Below, piece after piece: positions 1 through 30,258 of a stretch of DNA of 34,124 nt. A program made the position numbers and the translations under genes. Source of the stretch: an uncultured Lachnospiraceae bacterium (GTDB lineage: Bacteria; Bacillota; Clostridia; Oscillospirales; CAG-272); contig CAYPKQ010000002.1 in assembly GCA_964411355.1 (NCBI GenBank), forward strand, positions 1-34,124, written 5' to 3'. The notes under the pieces are model-generated. The model was not told the origin of the DNA. It did no database searches and was given only the letters and a program-made list of their open reading frames with translations. How positions within the stretch are numbered: the first letter of the stretch is position 1; each line of letters opens with the position of its first letter.

Positions 1-104
1 GACAGCGACCGGCGATGACGCCGACTCCCAAAAACTTTTGAAAAAAGTTTTATCAAAACTTTCCCTGACAACGTCCAAGGCTACTCTTTGCTAAATTACT
101 GTTT
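1..104. repeat. Partial copy (right arm, cut by the window edge) of a hairpin-rich intergenic repeat ending in AAATTACTGTTT
   Basis: nt 1-62 align by eye at roughly 90% with 4711-4772. It has the same sub-hairpins (CGGCG..CGCCG; AAAACTTTT..AAAAGTTTT). It ends in the family terminal 12-mer at 93-104. Confidence 0.75.
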
Positions 105-153: not shown

Positions 154-948
154 ATGGTTAACGAGTTTGAAATCAAAAAACAGATATGCGAAATTGGCAA
201 GCGTATCTACGCAAAGGGAATGGTTGCTTCAAATGACGGTAATATTTCCGTTAAGCTGAACGACAATGAGTTTCTCTGCACACCCACAGGCGTTTCCAAG
301 GGCTTTATGACCCCCGAATACATCTGCAAGGTTGACAGAGACGGTAAGGTCCTTCAGGCAAATGCTGGTTTTAAGCCCTCTTCCGAGATCAAGATGCACA
401 TGAGAGTTTATAAGGAAAGACCCGATGTAAATTCTGTTGTTCATGCTCATCCTCTCTATGCAACATCTTTCGCTATTGCAGGTATTCCGCTTACAGAGCC
501 TATCATGCCCGAGGCAGTTATCGCTCTCGGATGCGTACCGATAGCTGAATACGGAACACCCTCAACAGAGGAAATCCCGGATGCTGTATCAAAGTACCTC
601 CAGCACTATGATGCTGTTCTTCTTGCAAATCACGGCGCACTTTCCTTCTCCGATAGCCTTCTCAATGCTTATCACAAGATGGAATCCCTTGAATTCTATG
701 CACAGCTTCTTTATCAGTCAAAGATGCTCGGTGGCCCTAAGCAGCTTACAGATTCTCAGGTTCAGAGACTTTACGAGATCCGTCGTCAGTTCGGTCTTAA
801 GGGCAAGCACCCCGCAGACATCTGCCCCAATGTAAAGGCAGGCAAGCCCAGCTGTCACGGCTGCGGCGGCTCTTGCTCCCACGGCAGTGCAGATGCTGAT
901 ACAGTTGCAATGATAACAAAGCTCGTTCTTGAGCAGCTTGGCAAATAA
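154..948 (+). CDS. Class II aldolase/adducin-family enzyme (fuculose/rhamnulose-1-phosphate aldolase-like) with a Cys/His-rich linker and a C-terminal encapsulation-peptide-like helix
   Basis: 264-aa ORF with an AAGGAG RBS 8 nt upstream. Family hallmarks are NDGNISVK, TPTGVSKG, PSSEIKMH and VVHAHP (metal-binding His region). The C-terminal tail is ...CPNVKAGKPSCHGCGGSCSHGS-ADADTVAMITKLVLEQLGK. Confidence 0.85.
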   Translation: MVNEFEIKKQICEIGKRIYAKGMVASNDGNISVKLNDNEFLCTPTGVSKGFMTPEYICKVDRDGKVLQANAGFKPSSEIKMHMRVYKERPDVNSVVHAHPLYATSFAIAGIPLTEPIMPEAVIALGCVPIAEYGTPSTEEIPDAVSKYLQHYDAVLLANHGALSFSDSLLNAYHKMESLEFYAQLLYQSKMLGGPKQLTDSQVQRLYEIRRQFGLKGKHPADICPNVKAGKPSCHGCGGSCSHGSADADTVAMITKLVLEQLGK

Positions 949-957
949 TTTTGCTCC

Positions 958-1431
958 ATGAACGAGGCTGAAATCAAAAGAATAGTTGAAAATACCGTCT
1001 CGGCTCTCAAAGGCAAGAAGGAAATGACACTCATGCTTGCCGAAAGGCTTTGCGATGCTGTGATGGAAGAAGCAAAACGCATAGGTGTTAAGGCTGTTGT
1101 CTGCATTTCCGACGGTGCGGGAAATCCAAAGCTTGTCAAAAGCATGGATGATGCCTATATCGCAAGCTATGATGTGGCTCTCGGCAAGGCATATACTGTG
1201 GTGGCTCTGAAAATGTCCACCAAAAAGCTGTCTTCTCTTGCAAAACCGGGTGAAAGCCTTTACGGAATTCAGTTTACGAACGGCGGAAAGATAGTGATAT
1301 TCGGCGGTGGTGACCCTCTCCTTGGAGATGGTGGCAAGATCATCGGTGGTCTTGGCGTAAGCGGGGGCACCGAGGAGCAGGACACGGCTCTTTCAGCCTT
1401 CGGAAAACGGTATTTTGAAACTCAAATGTAA
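958..1431 (+). CDS. GlcG/DUF336 (PduO C-terminal-domain-like, putative heme-binding) protein with an N-terminal encapsulation-peptide-like helix
   Basis: 157-aa ORF lying 9 nt after the aldolase stop. It has a Gly-rich DUF336-type C-terminus (GGLGVSGGTEEQD). The N-terminus MNEAEIKRIVENTVSAL matches the amphipathic BMC targeting pattern. Confidence 0.7.
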   Translation: MNEAEIKRIVENTVSALKGKKEMTLMLAERLCDAVMEEAKRIGVKAVVCISDGAGNPKLVKSMDDAYIASYDVALGKAYTVVALKMSTKKLSSLAKPGESLYGIQFTNGGKIVIFGGGDPLLGDGGKIIGGLGVSGGTEEQDTALSAFGKRYFETQM

Positions 1432-1448
1432 TAAGAAAGGAAATAAAA

Positions 1449-2654
1449 ATGGATATTAAATCCACTGATATTGAAAGAATTGTCAGACAGGTGCTGGAAA
1501 ATATCGGAAACGACGCTTCAGCACCAAATTCCTCTGCTAAAAGCGGAAATATTCCCGAAAAGAGCAGAGTTGCAATGCTGACAAAGCTTGAGCATTTTGA
1601 TATCGAGGAGCATCCCATTCCCGAGCTTGGCGATGATGATATTCTCGTTAAGGTTGAAGGATGCGGTGTTTGCGGAACAGATGCTCATGAATTTAAGCGT
1701 GATCCATTTTCGCTTATTCCCGTGGTTCTCGGACATGAGGGCACGGGAGAGGTGGTGAAGGTCGGTAAAAATGTTAAAAAGGACAGCGCAGGCAAGCCTC
1801 TCGGCGTTGGCGATAAGGTCGTTACCTGCATGATCTTTAAGGACAACCCCGATATCACCATGTTTGACCTTAACAAGCAGAATGTTGGCGGTGCGGATGT
1901 TTACGGACTCCTTCCCGACGATGACAAAAAGCTTAATGGCTGGTTTGCGGATTACATACTCGTAAGAGGCGGCTCGACTATCTTCAATGTAAGCGATCTT
2001 GACCTTGATTCGAGAATCCTTATCGAGCCATGCGCAGTTCTCATCCACGCGGTTGAAAGGGCAAAGACAACGGGCATTCTCCGCTTCAACTCAAGAGTTG
2101 TGGTTCAGGGATGCGGACCTATCGGTCTTATCTGTATAGCAGTTCTCCGTGCAATGGGAACGGAAAACATCGTTGCTGTTGACGGCGAGGCAAAGAGACT
2201 TGAATTTGCAAAGCTCATGGGAGCAAATGAAACAGTAAACTTCAAGGAACACAAGGGAATCGAAGCTCTTGCCGGAGCTGTCAAGGACGCATTTGGCGGT
2301 TATCTTGCAGATTTTGCCTTCCAGTGTACAGGCTCTCCCATAGCTCATGCAAATATATATAAGTTCATCCGCAATGGCGGTGGACTTTGCGAGCTTGGCT
2401 TCTTCATAAACGGCGGAGATGCCACCATCAATCCTCATTTTGACATCTGTTCAAAGGAGATCACAACTGTCGGCTCTTGGGTATATACTCTGCGCGACTA
2501 TGTCACAACATTTGATTTCCTTAAGCGTGCAAAGGCAATTGGACTTCCCATGGAGAAGCTGATAACTCATAAATATCCCCTTGAAAAGATCAACGAAGCA
2601 CTTGAGACCAATCTTAAAATGGAAGGTCTTAAGATCGCCATTGTAAATGAATGA
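1449..2654 (+). CDS. Zn-dependent medium-chain (MDR) alcohol/polyol dehydrogenase with an N-terminal encapsulation-peptide-like helix plus linker
   Basis: 401-aa ORF. It carries the MDR motifs GCGVCGTDAHEF and GHEGTGEV, and a Rossmann motif VVVQGCGPIG. The first ~40 aa (STDIERIVRQVLENIG followed by the low-complexity stretch NDASAPNSSAKSGNIPEKS) precede the catalytic domain. Confidence 0.85.
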   Translation: MDIKSTDIERIVRQVLENIGNDASAPNSSAKSGNIPEKSRVAMLTKLEHFDIEEHPIPELGDDDILVKVEGCGVCGTDAHEFKRDPFSLIPVVLGHEGTGEVVKVGKNVKKDSAGKPLGVGDKVVTCMIFKDNPDITMFDLNKQNVGGADVYGLLPDDDKKLNGWFADYILVRGGSTIFNVSDLDLDSRILIEPCAVLIHAVERAKTTGILRFNSRVVVQGCGPIGLICIAVLRAMGTENIVAVDGEAKRLEFAKLMGANETVNFKEHKGIEALAGAVKDAFGGYLADFAFQCTGSPIAHANIYKFIRNGGGLCELGFFINGGDATINPHFDICSKEITTVGSWVYTLRDYVTTFDFLKRAKAIGLPMEKLITHKYPLEKINEALETNLKMEGLKIAIVNE

Positions 2655-2668
2655 TAAAGGGTGATAAA

Positions 2669-2983
2669 ATGGGAAAAGCAGTTGGAATAATCGAGGTTTT
2701 CGGTCTCACTGCGGCAATGGTCGCAGTTGATGCGGGCTGTAAGGCGGCAAATGTTACCGTTGAAACACTCGATAAGAACAAGCCCGGCAATGCAGATGCG
2801 CTTCCTGTTCCGCTTATCGTGGCGGTGAAATTCAGAGGAAGCGTTGATGCGGTAAGTGCGGCGGTAGATGCCGCAGAGCAGGCGGCAAATAATGTTTCGG
2901 GAGTTATCACAAAGCATATTATTGCAAATACCGAGGACTCTACCGAAAAAATGCTAAAATTAAATGCATTTGATAAGAATTAA
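2669..2983 (+). CDS. Divergent BMC-H (Pfam BMC-domain) shell protein with an enlarged pore-loop region
   Basis: I moved the start to the ATG at 2669 (an AAGGGTGA RBS lies upstream; the ORF-track start at 2651 overlaps the ADH stop). The BMC signature is GIIEVFGLTAAMVAVDAGCKAANV ... GSVDAVSAAVDAAEQAA. The usual K-I-G-x-G segment is replaced by LDKNKPGNADALPVP. Confidence 0.75.
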   Translation: MGKAVGIIEVFGLTAAMVAVDAGCKAANVTVETLDKNKPGNADALPVPLIVAVKFRGSVDAVSAAVDAAEQAANNVSGVITKHIIANTEDSTEKMLKLNAFDKN

Positions 2984-3001
2984 CGAAAGGAAATTGAAAA
3001 A

Positions 3002-3277
3002 ATGGCAATGGAAGCACTTGGAATGATAGAAACAAGAGGACTTGTTGCGGCAATCGAAGCGGCAGACGCAATGGTAAAAGCGGCAGAGGTAACTCTTATA
3101 GGAACAGAAAAGATCGGCAGCGGACTCGTATCCGTTATGGTAAGAGGCGATGTTGGCGCAGTTAAGGCGGCAACAGAGGCAGGAAGCACTGCTGCATCCC
3201 GCCTTGGAGAGCTTGTTGCAGTTCACGTAATTCCTCGTCCTCATGCAGATGTTGAGAAGATTCTTCCCACTCTCTGA
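3002..3277 (+). CDS. BMC-H shell protein, PduA/EutM-like (paralog 1 of 3)
   Basis: 91 aa with the canonical motifs [46 protein letters not shown] and VIPRPH. An AAAGGAAA RBS-like stretch lies upstream. Confidence 0.93.
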
Positions 3278-3293
3278 TTTTTAAGAGGAAAAT

Positions 3294-3677
3294 ATGAGAT
3301 CACTTGGATTTGTTGAGGTCAGCGGCGTAACGGCGGCGATAGATGCCCTTGACATTATGTGCAAGAGCGCAGATGTAACTCTCGTTTCCTGGGAGAGAAA
3401 GCTGGGAGGCAGACTTGTTACCCTTATGATAGAGGGGAGCGTTTCTGCGGTGAATGCGGCAGTGGAAAACGCCTGCGCATCCTGCATAAAAAAACCTGTG
3501 GCACACGCTGTTATAGCAAATCCGCATCCTGAGCTTGTACGTCTTGTTGAGCTTTCGGCATCAAGAATAAAGATGGCAGAGGGCGAAGCAGGGGGAAAGG
3601 TGGAAAGGGCTCAAAAAGAAGAAAAAAAGTCTCAAACGGCTAAAAAAACTGTAAAAACTAAAAAAGGAGATAAATAA
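3294..3677 (+). CDS. BMC-H shell protein with a ~45-aa Lys/Glu-rich C-terminal extension
   Basis: 127 aa with an AAGAGGAAAA RBS. The BMC domain is [25 protein letters not shown] ... [13 protein letters not shown] ... ANPHPE. It is followed by the tail [35 protein letters not shown]. Confidence 0.85.
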
Positions 3678-3679
3678 TT

Positions 3680-3958
3680 ATGGCACTTGAAGCACTTGGA
3701 ATGGTAGAGACAAGAGGACTTGTTGCGGCAATTGAAGCGGCAGACGCAATGGTAAAGGCAGCAAATGTAACTCTTATAGGAACAGAAAAGATCGGTAGCG
3801 GACTTGTATCCGTTATGGTAAGAGGCGATGTTGGCGCAGTTAAGGCGGCAACAGAGGCAGGAAGTGCTGCTGCATCTCACCTTGGTGAGCTTGTTGCAGT
3901 TCACGTAATTCCCCGTCCTCATGCAGATGTTGAGAAGATCCTTCCAACACTTAAGTAA
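3680..3958 (+). CDS. BMC-H shell protein, PduA/EutM-like (paralog 2 of 3)
   Basis: 92 aa and about 90% nt identity by eye to 3002-3277 and 3988-4266. It has the same canonical motifs. Confidence 0.93.
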
Positions 3959-3987
3959 TTCGAAATAATTTAAGGAGGTAATATATT

Positions 3988-4266
3988 ATGGCACTTGAAG
4001 CACTCGGAATGGTAGAAACAAGAGGTCTTGTTGCGGCAATCGAAGCGGCTGATGCAATGGTAAAGGCAGCAAATGTTGAGCTTATCGGCACAGAGAAGAT
4101 CGGTAGCGGACTCGTTTCTGTTATGGTAAGAGGCGATGTTGGCGCAGTTAAGGCGGCAACAGAGGCAGGAAGTGCTGCTGCATCTCACCTTGGTGAAATT
4201 GTTGCAGTTCACGTTATTCCCCGTCCTCACGCAGATGTTGAAAAGATCCTTCCTTCTCTCAAGTAA
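3988..4266 (+). CDS. BMC-H shell protein, PduA/EutM-like (paralog 3 of 3)
   Basis: 92 aa with an AAGGAGG RBS at 3972-3978. It is near-identical to paralog 2. Confidence 0.93.
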
Positions 4267-4275
4267 GAGGAAAAC

Positions 4276-4341
4276 GGAAAACAGACCGCTTTGCGGTTTG
4301 TTTTCCGGGCAATGTGCTCCCGTGCGGAGCATGCCGCCCGG
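4276..4341 (+). other. Two consecutive stem-loops immediately after the last BMC-H gene, with no U-tract
   Basis: The first hairpin is GGAAAACAGACCGC-ttt-GCGGTTTGTTTTCC (4276-4306, one G:U pair). The second is CCGGGC..GCTCC/GGAGC..GCCCGG (4305-4341, with an internal loop). Neither is followed by a T-run, so they are not classical terminators. They could be an mRNA-stability or processing signal, or a partial terminator. Confidence 0.45.
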
Positions 4342-4363
4342 AAAATAAACGGTTTTAATGGAT

Positions 4364-4811
4364 AAACAGTAATTTGTCGGTGAGTGAGAGCGCAGTCAGT
4401 TGAAAGTTTTGATCGACCTTTTTCAAAAGGTCGCGCTGCTCAAGCGTGCGTGCGCTTGCCGCCTCCGCAGAGGCGGAATCTCTTTGCGGCGCTTTCTTTT
4501 GCCAAGCTTTTCTTTGCGCCTTCAGCACCAAAGAAAAGCGGATAAACGATCAGCACTTACAATATTTAGTTAGTAATTTAGACACAAAATCAATATTTTC
4601 ACACTAAATTAAGCAGATTTAAACCCTTTGCCCGCTTTTTCTTTGACACCAAAGGCACAAAGAAAAAGCTTAGCAAAAAGAAATGCCGCTGAGAGCGTTT
4701 CGCTGTCTGCGGACAGCGACCGGCGATGTCGCCGGCTCCCACAAACTTTTGAAAAAGTTTGATCAAAACTTTCACCTTGCGCTCGTCCTCACTCACCGAT
4801 GAGTTACTGTT
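4364..4811. repeat. Imperfect palindromic, MITE-like element of ~450 bp built from nested GC-rich hairpins, inserted inside the BMC operon
   Basis: The left end AAACAGTAATTTGTCGGTGAGTGAG matches the reverse complement of the right end CTCACTCACCGATGAGTTACTGTT. The arms share modules GTGAAAGTTTTGATC...CTTTTTCAAAAG and GCTTTTCTTTG..CAAAGAAAAGCGG. Local hairpins include CGACCTTTT/AAAAGGTCG, CCGCCTC/GAGGCGG, CCGGCGA/TCGCCGG and GCTTTTTCTTTG/CAAAGAAAAAGC. There is no credible ORF. Confidence 0.85.
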
Positions 4812-4847
4812 AAAATTGTAAAAAATCTCTTTAAAAGGAGTAAAAAT

Positions 4848-5120
4848 ATGATAATTGGAAAAGTTGTTGGAAGTGTTGTTTCCACGAGAAAGAATGAAAA
4901 GCTTATCGGCAGCAAATTCATGATAGTTGAGGCTCTTGCAAAAACGGGCAACTGTCAGAGAGTCGTTGCTGTTGATAATGTTGGCGCGGGTATCGGAGAG
5001 CTTGTTCTCGTAACTCTCGGAAGTGCTGCAAGAATTGGTCTTGACTGCGCAAATTCTCCCGTTGATGCGGCAATCGTCGGCATAATTGATGATGAAAACG
5101 GAATACCCGACCTTAAATAA
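4848..5120 (+). CDS. eutN: BMC-P pentameric vertex protein (EutN/PduN/CcmL family)
   Basis: 90 aa with an AAAGGAG RBS. Typical motifs are MIIGKVVGSVVSTRK, VAVDNVGAG.GE.VLV and DAAIVGIID. Confidence 0.9.
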   Translation: MIIGKVVGSVVSTRKNEKLIGSKFMIVEALAKTGNCQRVVAVDNVGAGIGELVLVTLGSAARIGLDCANSPVDAAIVGIIDDENGIPDLK

Positions 5121-5122
5121 AA

Positions 5123-6439
5123 ATGGAATTAAATAAGCTTAAAGATATTTTAAGAAAAGGCGGAGTTGTGGGGGCGGGCGGCGCAGGTTTTCCCACCTAT
5201 GCAAAGCTTTCGGAAAATATCGACACGGTGATCTTAAACTGTGCCGAATGTGAACCTCTGCTAAAGCTTCACAGACAGCTTCTTGAAGAATATACAGCCG
5301 AAATTCTCACAGCATTTGATGAGATACTTGACGCCACGGGCGCAGAGTGCGGTATTATTGCTGTCAAGGCTCATTATAAAAACGCAATTTCTGCTCTTGA
5401 AGCGGAGATCGGTGAGCATAAAAGGCTTTCGATCGTGAAGTTGGGTTCGGTCTATCCGGCAGGAGATGAGCTGATACTTATAAAAGAGGTGACGGGAAGA
5501 CTTGTTCCTCCCGGAAAGCTTCCTGCGTCTGTAGGAGTTATGGTCAGCAATACCGAAACCGTCTATAATGTCTATAATGCCATAAAGGGTAAGCCGGTTA
5601 CCGAAAAATTTGTAACCGTTGCTGGCGAGGTGGCATCCCCCGTTACTCTTTGTGTGCCAATTGGAACAAAGCTCTCGGAGCTTGTGAAGAGGGCAGGCGG
5701 TCTTACGCACGAGGATGTTGAATATATAAACGGCGGTCCAATGATGGGAAGGATAGTTTCAAGTGCCGATGTGGTTACCAAAACAACCAACGCACTTCTC
5801 GTTCTTCCAAGCGATAATGTTGCCGTGATGAATAAAAAACGAAATGCAAAAATAGGGCTTCGCCGCGCCATGTCGGTTTGCTGTCAGTGCAGAAGCTGCA
5901 CCGAGCTTTGCTCAAGACATAATCTCGGATACGGTGTTGAACCCCATATGGTCATGAGAGTCCTCTCAAACGGAGGAAGCGGCGAGGTTTATAGGCTTGC
6001 AGAGTCGCTTTTCTGCTCGGGGTGCGGTCTTTGCGAGACTTATTCCTGCCCCCAGGGACTTTCTCCCGGAAGCCTTATTGCAGAGCTTAAGGCAAAGGCG
6101 AGAGAGAACGGATTTAAAGCGGAAAATCCGAAAATTTATGAACGCCGTGACAGTGATCTGCACCGTGTTTCACTTGAAAGACTCCGTAGCAGACTTGGTC
6201 TTAATAAATATGATGTTCCCGCTCCACTTGACGGAAAAATTGAGGTAAAAGCTGTAAAGATCCCATGTCAGCAGCATATAGGAGCACCTTCCGTGCCTTG
6301 CGTTAAGGAAGGCGACAGAGTTAAGGCGGGCACTCTTATTGCAGAAGCTCCCGAAGGGGCTCTCGGAGTAGATATTCACGCATCCATTGACGGAAAAATA
6401 GAATCGGTCACACAAAAATACATAAAGATTGTAAGGTAA
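5123..6439 (+). CDS. pduS: PduS/RnfC-like Fe-S flavoprotein (NADH/FMN-binding, two 4Fe-4S motifs)
   Basis: 438 aa. It has a GAGGAGFPT nucleotide/FMN motif near the N-terminus. Two ferredoxin-type Cys clusters are present (CCQCRSCTELC and CSGCGLCETYSCP). The C-terminus is an RnfC-type barrel-sandwich segment (GAPSVPCVKEGDRVKAG). Confidence 0.8.
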   Translation: MELNKLKDILRKGGVVGAGGAGFPTYAKLSENIDTVILNCAECEPLLKLHRQLLEEYTAEILTAFDEILDATGAECGIIAVKAHYKNAISALEAEIGEHKRLSIVKLGSVYPAGDELILIKEVTGRLVPPGKLPASVGVMVSNTETVYNVYNAIKGKPVTEKFVTVAGEVASPVTLCVPIGTKLSELVKRAGGLTHEDVEYINGGPMMGRIVSSADVVTKTTNALLVLPSDNVAVMNKKRNAKIGLRRAMSVCCQCRSCTELCSRHNLGYGVEPHMVMRVLSNGGSGEVYRLAESLFCSGCGLCETYSCPQGLSPGSLIAELKAKARENGFKAENPKIYERRDSDLHRVSLERLRSRLGLNKYDVPAPLDGKIEVKAVKIPCQQHIGAPSVPCVKEGDRVKAGTLIAEAPEGALGVDIHASIDGKIESVTQKYIKIVR

Positions 6440-6440
6440 A

Positions 6441-6989
6441 ATGATGAAAAAAGCACTTGGAATGATAGAATTTAAAACGGTCGCATCGGGCATCACAGCC
6501 ACCGATATAATGCTGAAAACAGCAGAGGTTGAGGTCGTTCAGGCAAATCCCGTTTGCCCCGGAAAATATCTTGCAACCATTGCCGGTGAAATAAGTGCCG
6601 TCAAGGCGGCAATCGAGGCGGCAGAATCTTATAATTCCGCTATGCTTATTGACAAATTCATCCTCGGAAACCCCCATGAGAGCGTGCAGGGCGCAATTTG
6701 CGGATGTCTTGAGGTTGTGAATAAGGCTGCCATAGGAATAATTGAGACCTTTACTGCGGCAAGTGCCGTGGTTGCGGCAGATACAGCGGCAAAAACAGCG
6801 CTTGTTGAGCTTGTTGAGGTGCGCCTTGCAAAGGGAATGTGCGGCAAATCTTACGTTATCCTTACGGGAAGCGTTTCCAGCGTCACAGCCTCAATTGAGC
6901 GAGCAAAGGCGGGAATCGAAGACGGTCTTTTCCTTGATTCGTCCGTTATTGCAGGTCCCGACCCCGGACTTTGGGAAAGTATTCTTTAA
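6441..6989 (+). CDS. pduT: Tandem-domain BMC-T shell protein, PduT-like (conserved pore Cys)
   Basis: 182 aa with two BMC domains (ALGMIEFKTVASGITATD... and AIGIIETFTAASAVVAADTAAK...). The motif PVCPGKY aligns with the ICPGKF Cys that ligates the 4Fe-4S cluster in characterised PduT. Confidence 0.85.
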   Translation: MMKKALGMIEFKTVASGITATDIMLKTAEVEVVQANPVCPGKYLATIAGEISAVKAAIEAAESYNSAMLIDKFILGNPHESVQGAICGCLEVVNKAAIGIIETFTAASAVVAADTAAKTALVELVEVRLAKGMCGKSYVILTGSVSSVTASIERAKAGIEDGLFLDSSVIAGPDPGLWESIL

Positions 6990-7001
6990 GGAGAGAGCAA
7001 A

Positions 7002-28880: not shown

Positions 28881-28924
28881 ATAGCCGTGACAGAGTTTCT
28901 CGCTCTTGCCACGGCTATTTTTTC
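28881..28924 (+). terminator. Rho-independent terminator after folD
   Basis: ATAGCCGTG (28881-28889) pairs with CACGGCTAT (28910-28918) and is followed by TTTTTT. Confidence 0.8.
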
Positions 28925-28926
28925 AT

Positions 28927-29043
28927 AAACAGTAATTTAGCGAACTGTAGGATACCGATTAAAAAATGAGCTGATCTGTAGGGGACGTCGAGGTCGCCGT
29001 CCCCTACAAAATACATCTTCAACAGTTCGATAAATTACTGTTT
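28927..29043. repeat. Compact complete copy (117 bp) of the AAACAGTAATTT-terminated palindromic repeat family
   Basis: The terminal inverted repeats are AAACAGTAATTTAGCGAACTGT (left) and ACAGTTCGATAAATTACTGTTT (right). The central hairpin is TGTAGGGGACG-tcgaggtcgc-CGTCCCCTACA. Confidence 0.85.
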
Positions 29044-29053
29044 GAAAACATTA

Positions 29054-29257
29054 TTACTTGTTGTGATACTCATCAAAAAGGTCGTTTGGAGTACATTCGA
29101 GAATGTCGCAAAGCGCTTTAAGATTCTCGTATTTTATTCCCGAGGTTTTATTATTGACCATGTTATTAAAATTCTGGTAACTTAATCCCAACTGAATATA
29201 AAGCCAATATTTTGTTTTTCCTTTTTCCTTTAAAATATCAAGTACGCGCAGTTTCAA
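29054..29257 (-). CDS. XRE/Cro-C1-family HTH transcriptional regulator (67 aa)
   Basis: It has the pattern LRVLDILKEKGKTKYWLYIQLGLSYQNFNNMVNNK...LKALCDILECTPNDLF. The TTG start is preceded by GGAGG-N8. Confidence 0.8.
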   Translation of the reverse strand: MKLRVLDILKEKGKTKYWLYIQLGLSYQNFNNMVNNKTSGIKYENLKALCDILECTPNDLFDEYHNK

Positions 29258-29258
29258 G

Positions 29259-29377
29259 ATGTATACCTCCGTTATATAATGTAAAAATCAGTGTATGTAT
29301 ACATAATATATCAAAAAAGGACTTGACAAATAGATTTTTACATTGTATAATGTATACATTACATATTATGTATACAT
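29259..29377. promoter_or_regulatory. Divergent control region: a consensus promoter for the SLH gene plus a reiterated ATGTATACAT operator-like palindrome
   Basis: TTGACA (29323-29328), a 17-nt spacer, then TATAAT (29346-29351). The perfect 10-bp palindrome ATGTATACAT occurs at 29295-29304, 29350-29359 (overlapping the -10) and 29368-29377. A 9/10 copy, ATGTATACC, lies at 29259-29267 and overlaps the XRE gene RBS. Confidence 0.75.
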
Positions 29378-29434
29378 AACATCGATCATATGCCTGCGGG
29401 TATTTGAAATAAAAATTACAAAAGGAAAAAAATC

Positions 29435-30112
29435 ATGAAAATCAAAAAAATGCTCTGTTTAGCTCTCGCAATTACTTGCTGCATCGGAATACTTGCAACA
29501 AGTGCTTTTGCAAAAAAAGAAATGCCATTTGACAATTATGTCAAAAACAAAACTATGTACAATTATACTTTTAAAGATGTTAAAAGAAGTGATTGGTATT
29601 ATTCCTGCATTAAAAACTGTTATGAGCTTGGTCTTATCAACGGGAAAGGCAACAACACTTTTGAGCCGGACGGTAATATGACAGTTGGTGAAGCAATTGC
29701 GTTTGTTGTAAGGGCTCATGTAAGAAGAAACGGTACTCCCATTATAGCCCCCTTTGACAATACGGATCCACTCTATGCAACATACGTTGATTATGCCATG
29801 AGACATCATTTTAAACTATTTAATACTAAGCTTAATAAAGATGTTGAAATCGATTGGTCGGTTCGAAATTATATTGATCTTGACAGAAAGATAACATTTG
29901 CTGAATTTTGGGTTTTGGCATATTCGGCACTTGGCGAAAATGATCTTTACGGTAGTATTTTGACGGCTTCCGATATTATGCTTGATATTTATCCTTGCTC
30001 ATCACTTCATAGCCGCATTGTTGCTTATAGAAATAGCCTTGAAAACGATTTGACAGCTCCCATTACCCGTGCCGCGGCAGCCCGCATTATCAATTGCTTT
30101 TTCTCAAAATAA
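29435..30112 (+). CDS. Secreted SLH (S-layer homology) domain protein
   Basis: 225 aa. The signal peptide is MKIKKMLCLALAITCCIGILATSAFA. The SLH motif is FKDVKRSDWYYSCIKNCYELGLINGKGNNTFEPDGNMTVGEAIAFVVRA. A degenerate SLH-like C-terminus (LTAPITRAAAARII) follows. Confidence 0.8.
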   Translation: MKIKKMLCLALAITCCIGILATSAFAKKEMPFDNYVKNKTMYNYTFKDVKRSDWYYSCIKNCYELGLINGKGNNTFEPDGNMTVGEAIAFVVRAHVRRNGTPIIAPFDNTDPLYATYVDYAMRHHFKLFNTKLNKDVEIDWSVRNYIDLDRKITFAEFWVLAYSALGENDLYGSILTASDIMLDIYPCSSLHSRIVAYRNSLENDLTAPITRAAAARIINCFFSK

Positions 30113-30152
30113 TATTATTGTTTTAGCATAAGTTTTTCCAAATGTCGCCGAT

Positions 30153-30193
30153 AAACAGTAATTTAGCGCACTGTAGGCGAATGAATTTCATTT
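30153..30193. repeat. Half copy (left terminus only) of the AAACAGTAATTT repeat family
   Basis: AAACAGTAATTTAGCGCACTGTAGG matches 28927-28951 at 24/25 positions. A short AATGAA/TTCATT hairpin follows. I found no right terminus. Confidence 0.7.
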
Positions 30194-30203
30194 GAATTAT
30201 TGC

Positions 30204-30253
30204 AAAAAATCGGGACTGAGTCAAAAGCTTACCGAAAGCAAATGACTCAGCCC
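30204..30253 (-). terminator. Rho-independent terminator of pyk (minus strand)
   Basis: The minus strand reads GGGCTGAGTCA...TGACTCAGTCCC followed by GATTTTTTG. Confidence 0.75.
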
Positions 30254-30258
30254 CTCTA

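Follow-up and report, generated by a model that had tools for sequence, protein, structure and literature searches.

The window analysed here, the whole stretch of 34,124 nt, contains a bacterial microcompartment operon (154-9869) and also encodes housekeeping genes. The operon starts with genes for a class II aldolase, an HbpS/GlcG-like protein and a zinc alcohol dehydrogenase, continues with five BMC shell genes (three of them tandem paralogues, 87-89% identical, at 2986-4271), EutN, a PduS/RnfC-like protein and a tandem-BMC protein, and finishes with a DeoR regulator, an aldehyde dehydrogenase and PduL. A 12-mer, AAACAGTAATTT or its complement, occurs six times as an exact match, at 93-104 (-), 4364-4375 (+), 9930-9941 (-), 28927-28938 (+), 29032-29043 (-) and 30153-30164 (+), just as a sequence-only reading of this DNA had listed. 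That reading had placed all copies between genes, and none of the six falls within a called gene, although 0.93 of the window is coding by a crude gene call. The 12-mer is well above chance frequency: shuffled sequences give an expectation of 0.32 even with one mismatch allowed, the observed six being a ~20-fold enrichment; none of 100 shuffles attained six copies, and allowing one mismatch still yields six in the window.

Similarity extends beyond the 12-mer. Conservation of the ends reaches ~22-25 nt inward and stops abruptly at position -1, where the base is a pyrimidine (Y). An end profile made from 96 distinct end sequences of relatives and searched against the window finds precisely these six ends and nothing else convincing, with a weak match at 4790-4811, the degenerate mate of 4364-4375. 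A literature search with the 12-mer returned only primers and genes of no relevance, and an Rfam scan of the window and of element-rich loci, part of which covered loci without full elements, matched no element at gathering or E-value thresholds.

The copies differ in completeness. The leftmost is a partial element cut by the window start (1..104, minus strand, terminal 12-mer 93-104), lying 50 nt ahead of the gene for the class II aldolase (154-948) and matched by the end profile at 83-105 (E 2e-4); its interior, a GC hairpin and a CTTTTGAAAAA...GATCAAAACTTT module, runs leftwards beyond the window. The microcompartment operon harbours an element of ~448 nt (4364..4812) that divides the shell genes from eutN, its neighbours being a BMC shell gene (3988-4266) on one side and eutN (4848-5120) on the other. 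The left 12-mer of this element (4364-4375) is exact and its right end degenerate, the mate claimed at 4802-4811 being present as AACAGTAACTC at 4801-4811; both ends are of the type that we call B (GGTGAGTGAG), the arms bear differing GC-rich sub-hairpins, and the whole folds as a single long imperfect hairpin (-122.6 kcal/mol, z -13.6). Positions 1-45 and 4712-4756 are 93% identical, and the modularity proposed earlier is borne out, as the 1-104 and 4364-4811 copies have modules in common that are missing from the 117-nt copy described below. The junction upstream of eutN that is orthologous to the right end of the ~448-nt element is occupied in two relatives (L145, L148).

Downstream of the terminator of pduL (PTAC) stands a solo 12-mer (9930..9941, minus strand) with 14 nt of the end consensus (profile E 0.014) and no hairpin (z -0.5). 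An element end follows the pduL terminator in the relative L145; the window's solo 12-mer at this place is probably the relic of a truncated element. The ~780 nt that follow (9942-10718) are AT-rich (GC 0.36 for 10001-11000) and contain no convincing open reading frame, and a terminator-like hairpin lies at ~10025-10050 in the minus-strand reading.

The complete 117-nt element (28927..29043) starts 49 nt past the folD stop codon, immediately beyond the folD terminator (stem 28884-28915), and precedes a convergent gene for a 67-aa XRE-type protein (29054-29257). The 22-nt terminal inverted repeats claimed for it are there, with arms 95% complementary; both ends are of type A (CGAACTGT), and the element folds as a hairpin (z -8.2 and -9.1). 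The predicted inner hairpin, TGTAGGGGACG...CGTCCCCTACA, is found at 28977-29008: this GC-rich cargo, TGTAGGGGACGTCGAGGTCGCCGTCCCCTACA, has a GTAG head (28978-28981) and a CTAC tail (29004-29007), is REP-like, and is 87-93% similar to the GTAGGGGACGGCGACC hairpins of relatives.

A solo A-type end, AAACAGTAATTTAGCGCACTGTAGG (30153..30177, plus strand; profile E 2e-5), lies between the gene for an SLH-domain protein (29435-30112) and the pyk terminator, at a break of synteny with relatives. A 1.2-kb stretch is flanked by directly repeated left ends, 28925-28951 and 30151-30177, which are 96% identical. The low-GC DNA within it (29044-30152; GC 0.33 for 29001-30000) encodes the XRE-type regulator on the minus strand and the SLH-domain protein, has a perfect TTGACA-17-TATAAT promoter match at 29323-29351, and is missing from the folD and pyk neighbourhoods of relatives; bracketed as it is by near-identical left ends, it may be acquired DNA. 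The post-pyk terminator of the window (30204-30258; GGGGCTGAGTC...GACTCAGTCCC and ...ATTCATTCG), compared with L089 (11700-11750) and L093, is homologous to the post-hprK terminator of relatives and not to their pyk terminator, and no further copies of it were found among the relatives' loci examined.

The repeat family in related Clostridia

A scan of a genome collection (one genome per species) with the 12-mer and a degenerate 10-nt extension matched at least 87 loci. Among the matches listed, most loci belong to the sheep-rectum MAG JAFXAN01 ('Clostridia bacterium RGIG6239') and a second set to the roe-deer MAG JAFUIY01; the remaining listed matches are scattered and single, and are either chance-like or one orthologous site in Christensenella. 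In the Christensenella MAGs L006, L008 and L049 a single 12-mer followed by AGCG stands at what is apparently one orthologous site, and in these (as also in L037 and L072) it lies directly upstream of a ribosome-binding site and start codon; such copies may be due to chance or be a distant relic. Many JAFXAN01 contigs start 117-177 nt inside an element, as expected of a high-copy repeat longer than the assembler word size.

Related assemblies, obtained via homologues of Pyk, FolD and PduS, show 83-84% DNA identity to the window, as does JAFXAN01, and the window therefore represents a sister species. The comparison material consists of 8-kb MAG pieces, all from metagenome assemblies, and contains 160 distinct ends (an earlier set had 119) and 54 complete elements of 69-366 nt. 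The complete elements fall into several subfamilies and into length classes of about 98, 166, 203, 250, 270 and 346 nt, with identity averaging 84-94% within subfamilies and reaching 98%. None of the 54, nor the ~448-nt element of the window, has a protein-family match. Density is ~1 element per 7-8 kb in loci picked by protein and not by motif, close to the one copy per 7 kb that the sequence-only reading had put forward for the window; any copy number per genome is an extrapolation from this density. The 12-mer marks the ends of a genuine high-copy family of small non-coding hairpins in uncultured ruminant-gut Clostridia.

The elements carry an invariant terminus, Y-AAACAGTAATTT-RKCG, at both ends and in inverted orientation, and in a single strand the two termini pair as a ~16-bp stem. 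Across the 160 ends, conservation begins sharply at the first A of the 12-mer, with a pyrimidine before it. Subterminally there is one of two main modules, A (GAACWGTC) or B (GGTGAGKGA or a GGYGCG variant), which are not complementary to each other. An A end is paired with a B end in 38 of the 54 complete elements, so that most elements have an internal bubble; in the window, the 117-nt copy (A/A) and the ~448-nt copy (B/B) are exceptions. All complete elements tested are long imperfect hairpins closed by the paired termini (z -8 to -13.6).

The interiors are variable and contain GC-rich sub-hairpins, several of them GTAG-headed (for example GTAGGGGCGATCATTGATCGCCC(CTAC)), as inverted dimers. 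The 166-nt class has two GTAG hairpins in inverted orientation, and the 98-nt form is a deletion between these two hairpins. Within ~650 kb, 30 of the 32 GTAG-headed hairpins lie within 250 nt of a 12-mer; they are found in some subfamilies only, many others having none, and the family-wide invariant motif differs from the GTAG/CGTC tag. With respect to the terminus, a ~95-nt block (AAAGTTTTGATC...CTTTTTCAAAAG plus two GC hairpins) is oriented oppositely in the window and the MAG. The 12-mer is far more conserved than the interiors, with 11 single mismatches in 47 pairs, and is at the same time species-variable: one more distant relative has AAACAATAATTT as its terminus, and in the roe-deer MAG AAACAGTAATTT ends are paired with AAATCAGAATTT ends. 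This conservation and the concerted change of the 12-mer within species suggest a protein that recognises it.

Unusual forms are also present. One element of the roe-deer MAG (L053, 4190-4300) contains four tandem units of ~24 nt, in each of which GTGATATAT precedes another small hairpin, looped by C(TTCG)G or C(TGCG)G. Stem sequences vary from unit to unit without loss of pairing, and loops of the UNCG type could be a sign that an RNA fold is under selection. A unit of ~300 nt that starts with the 12-mer and ends in ...CTTGTATTTTAATTC without a 12-mer of its own (L063, 6586-6984; L015, L051, L060, L087, L030) always abuts the outer end of another complete element, and there the 12-mers are direct. 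A minimal 43-nt element (L018, 5065-5107) has an A end followed immediately by a degenerate right 12-mer, and a solo A end follows a terminator in L047 (~2165-2200); truncated copies like those at 30153 and 9930 in the window thus occur in relatives too.

Fixed positions and exchanged interiors

The copies occupy the predicted untranscribed gap behind terminators: a typical element starts 35-60 nt past a stop codon, just beyond the terminator, and among the 42 elements with both neighbours called, the neighbouring genes are convergent in 23 cases, tandem in 15 and divergent in 4. With either end type, left flanks are rich in T and right flanks in A, as expected beside terminators; a target motif in the flanks was looked for and rejected, only this terminator-like composition and the Y at -1 being found. 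Orientation relative to the gene strand shows no significant bias (7 vs 14, p = 0.19). One 345-nt element (L033, 5171-5515) has a gene for the bacterial large SRP RNA (4776-5040, 162 bits) ~130 nt away.

Positions are conserved between species and contents are not, even between strains. At least three of the five window sites (folD, upstream of eutN, downstream of pduL) are occupied at the same position in species ~84% identical, and in strains of one species (98% identity) all three sites compared differ in interior while keeping the same 12-mer boundaries. The element after folD measures 117 nt in the window and 166 nt in the sister species, where it lies beyond a homologous folD terminator as in the window; in a strain 98% identical to that sister it is 281 nt long and belongs to another class, the order of its A and B ends being reversed relative to the 166-nt one. 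In a 10.9-kb alignment of four strains, the post-folD element is the sole structural difference. The pyk-hprK site, whose strains were compared by pairwise BLAST, has identical flanks around alleles of 203 nt, a 70-nt perfect hairpin, a diverged 203-nt copy, and one allele that is cut by a contig end and starts like the 70-nt allele and other GTCGGTCTGT-type elements. At the third site, the beta-lactamase site, four strains have four alleles, two of which differ solely in a 24-nt module reaching from the GTAG hairpin to the 12-mer.

Exchange points lie at the 12-mers or at internal modules in common, such as the 27-nt GTAG hairpin, and swaps of whole interiors share merely 12-16 nt at each end. 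The L100 element at site 1 is 90% identical to the L089 element at site 2 in inverted orientation; interiors are copied between sites in either orientation. Since some sites are common to both species, the copies are too alike to have diverged in place since before the species split, and sequence must still be copied between sites. Assembly errors are an unlikely source of the strain differences, because unique flanks anchor 140 subterminal nt at either side at the word sizes used (as inferred from the 'k141' contig names) and both flanks are syntenic.

Neither insertion nor an empty site was seen within a species: the three sites compared are always occupied and show no filled/empty polymorphism, and no de novo insertion was observed at the sites compared. 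The only unoccupied case is a more distant species (FolD 87%), which has the terminator alone after folD. A scan for empty frames, with two 12-mers 0-30 nt apart, gave 21 matches in a metagenome collection that may not include the family's lineage; none belongs to the family, and all were rejected as single palindromes on unrelated contigs, mostly AT-rich and without the family's extended ends. Conserved positions with replaced interiors mean that sequence is mobile between fixed sites, and none was seen to insert at a new one. The sequence-only reading had held that strict conservation of all positions across distant relatives would speak against mobility, and positions are indeed partly conserved: the sites are shared, but the contents have been replaced between strains 98% identical.

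Breaks in gene order coincide exactly with elements. Beyond folD lie the XRE and SLH-domain genes in the window, and marR and ABC transporter genes in the sister species; beyond pyk, relatives have a full element, hprK and other neighbouring genes in place of the window's solo end. At the window's GH92 and metallophosphatase junctions the far-side neighbours are not orthologous to those of the MAG.

Search for an enzyme and competing explanations

No transposase domain was matched in the window ORFs scanned, in agreement with the absence noted earlier. The ~650 kb of element-rich loci, which sample an estimated fifth of one draft genome, contained no credible RAYT/Y1-type ORF in a screen for the HUH...Y motif, whose lone match was spurious, and the multicopy ORFs near elements encode AraC regulators, ABC ATPases, GH26 proteins and similar, and no transposase. 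Neither these loci, nor the window, nor the plasmid and phage collections yielded an autonomous insertion sequence bounded by such ends. A 269-nt element compared with those collections by BLAST gave no plasmid match and one 38-nt phage match, in an unannotated record; the sole match in viral contigs lay in a coding region and is ascribed to chance. The matching transposase that the sequence-only reading had proposed to look for was not found in the window or in the ~650 kb, and a single-copy enzyme gene could lie elsewhere in the MAGs, beyond the pieces examined. Target-site duplications, also proposed, are absent, direct repeats at the junctions of the 54 complete elements being as frequent as in permuted controls; nor does the inverted repeat continue into their flanks beyond chance.

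These results bear directly on whether the elements are classical MITEs, that is, derived by deletion from an insertion sequence that encodes a DDE transposase, carrying the ~22-nt terminal inverted repeats of their parent and cut and pasted in trans to new intergenic sites. Their small size and many copies, the common ends across several subfamilies, the terminal inverted repeats of 16-25 nt (12 nt of them invariant), the contigs that break within repeats and the varying abundance among related species would all suit such an origin. The classical reading nonetheless fails on the missing duplications in 54 elements and the missing insertion polymorphism, positions being kept across species ~84% identical; with no transposase in ~650 kb and no annotated plasmid or phage record matched (the 38-nt match being to an unannotated phage record), we consider it very unlikely. 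Still less probable, and in our judgement scarcely tenable, is that the 12-mer is a signal used by the host, for instance in DNA uptake or in binding a chromosome-organising protein, to which the hairpins are secondary. A short, invariant, over-represented motif, often in inverted pairs near terminators and at positions kept across species, might be read in this way. Known uptake sequences, however, are frequent inside genes, and none of the six copies is in coding sequence though 93% of the window is coding; moreover, the motif always comes with 10-13 extra conserved bases and multicopy interiors, and close relatives use another motif or have none.

The main rival is host recombination alone, acting on enzyme-less relics: an ancient burst would have left fixed palindromes from which recombination, slippage and template switching make mosaics, truncations and rearrangements. 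The exchange points at common internal modules such as the 27-nt GTAG hairpin, the derivation of the 98-nt form from the 166-nt form by deletion, the solo and truncated ends and the breaks of synteny at elements are all what this explanation would produce. Against it, three of three sites differ between strains only ~2% diverged, whole interiors are swapped on 12-16 nt of common sequence per end, which is short for RecA-dependent exchange, and the 12-mer both outconserves the interiors and changes in concert within species. We therefore regard this explanation as distinctly unlikely, while noting that host recombination alone could account for the replacement of content, which counts against an enzymatic step.

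Interpretation and known systems

We conclude, with a probability of roughly 0.6, that the family is lineage-specific and consists of palindromic mosaic repeats, non-coding and non-autonomous, that are of the REP/BIME (REPIN) kind, on the grounds of palindromes without target duplication, heterodimeric ends, mosaic interiors, GTAG hairpins, persistence at orthologous sites and a species-variable terminus. The family is new for its lineage; the kind of repeat is already known. The sequence-only reading had offered a MITE or a REP/BIME-like family mobilised in trans, and it is the latter half that fits well; for a strict MITE, no duplication, partner or filled/empty polymorphism was found. An enzyme acting in trans and leaving no duplication probably services the family, whose copies recombine often. 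Such an enzyme would spread the family and keep it homogeneous; the most economical guess is a single-copy HUH/Y1 transposase of RAYT/TIRYT type acting on the folded single strand of the hairpins. Frequent ectopic conversion between copies would then produce the modular mix, and the repeats would also serve as breakpoints of genome rearrangement. Against the REP/BIME reading stand the failure to find a RAYT/Y1-type ORF in the ~650 kb screened, an invariant motif other than a GTAG or CGTC tag, the many subfamilies without a GTAG hairpin, and the orientation data: a lagging-strand, single-strand mechanism might give a bias, and none is significant.

An unlikely possibility is that the paired 13-mers are docking sites of an undescribed cassette-replacement system in which resident interiors are exchanged. 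The resident element would be cut by an enzyme at its terminal motif or slightly inward of it, and any other family member could then supply, in either orientation, the sequence that fills the gap, so that more than 100 fixed intergenic docks would swap hairpin cassettes and never appear empty; the nearest analogy is the targeted replacement of P elements in Drosophila. The invariant terminal motif on every copy lets the replacement of interiors be read directly from a comparison of strains, and if an enzyme that co-varies with the motif were found, it would offer a fresh way to learn how such repeats spread and are kept uniform. The repeats also break metagenome assemblies and coincide with breaks in gene order, and hence matter for assembly, binning and genome comparison.

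Several known systems resemble the family in part. Bacterial MITEs such as Correia of Neisseria, RUP of pneumococcus and bcr1 of Bacillus cereus share its size, terminal inverted repeats, hairpins, intergenic location and division into several subfamilies, but they make target duplications (for example TA) and show insertion polymorphism, neither of which was found here. Integron attC sites are likewise folded hairpins with conserved inverted core sites at the base, an unpaired bubble and a top very variable in length and sequence; the resemblance is limited to shape, as there is no cassette array, adjacent integrase or RYYYAAC/GTTRRRY core here, and the elements lie among housekeeping genes. 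Closer are the REP dimers within constant palindromic frames and the families of terminal inverted repeats around RAYT-like genes (TIRtrons/TIRYTs) described by Di Nocera et al. 2013 (PMC3733652). Those frames, too, have a constant outer palindrome around REP dimers and were never found empty (PMC3733652), as no empty frame of the present family was, and those terminal-inverted-repeat families also form dimers and clusters; however, the frame sequence is another, a single frame here holds many unrelated interiors, and interiors are exchanged between strains at fixed sites.

Most similar are the REP/BIME/REPIN repeats of Proteobacteria, those of E. coli among them, with their RAYT (TnpA-REP) enzymes, high-copy extragenic palindromes that make no target duplication (PMC3333891, PMC3116915, PMC2817692) and whose BIME content at a locus has been described as strain-variable (PMC3333891). 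The present family departs from them in its invariant part, a 13-16-nt AT-rich terminal motif in place of the GTAG tag, in the many subfamilies devoid of GTAG hairpins, in the failure to find a RAYT in ~650 kb of loci, and in its host, an uncultured Clostridia lineage and not one of the Proteobacteria. It shares with them the high-copy extragenic imperfect palindromes without target duplication, the inverted dimers of two partner types, the mosaic make-up, GTAG-headed GC-rich hairpins in several subfamilies, the location at gene 3' ends, the long persistence at orthologous sites and the strain-variable content at a locus. Firmicutes and Clostridia go unmentioned in three surveys of REP sequences (PMC3733652, PMC2817692, PMC3333891), and on the reading preferred here REP/BIME-type repeat biology would extend to an uncultured lineage of Clostridia.
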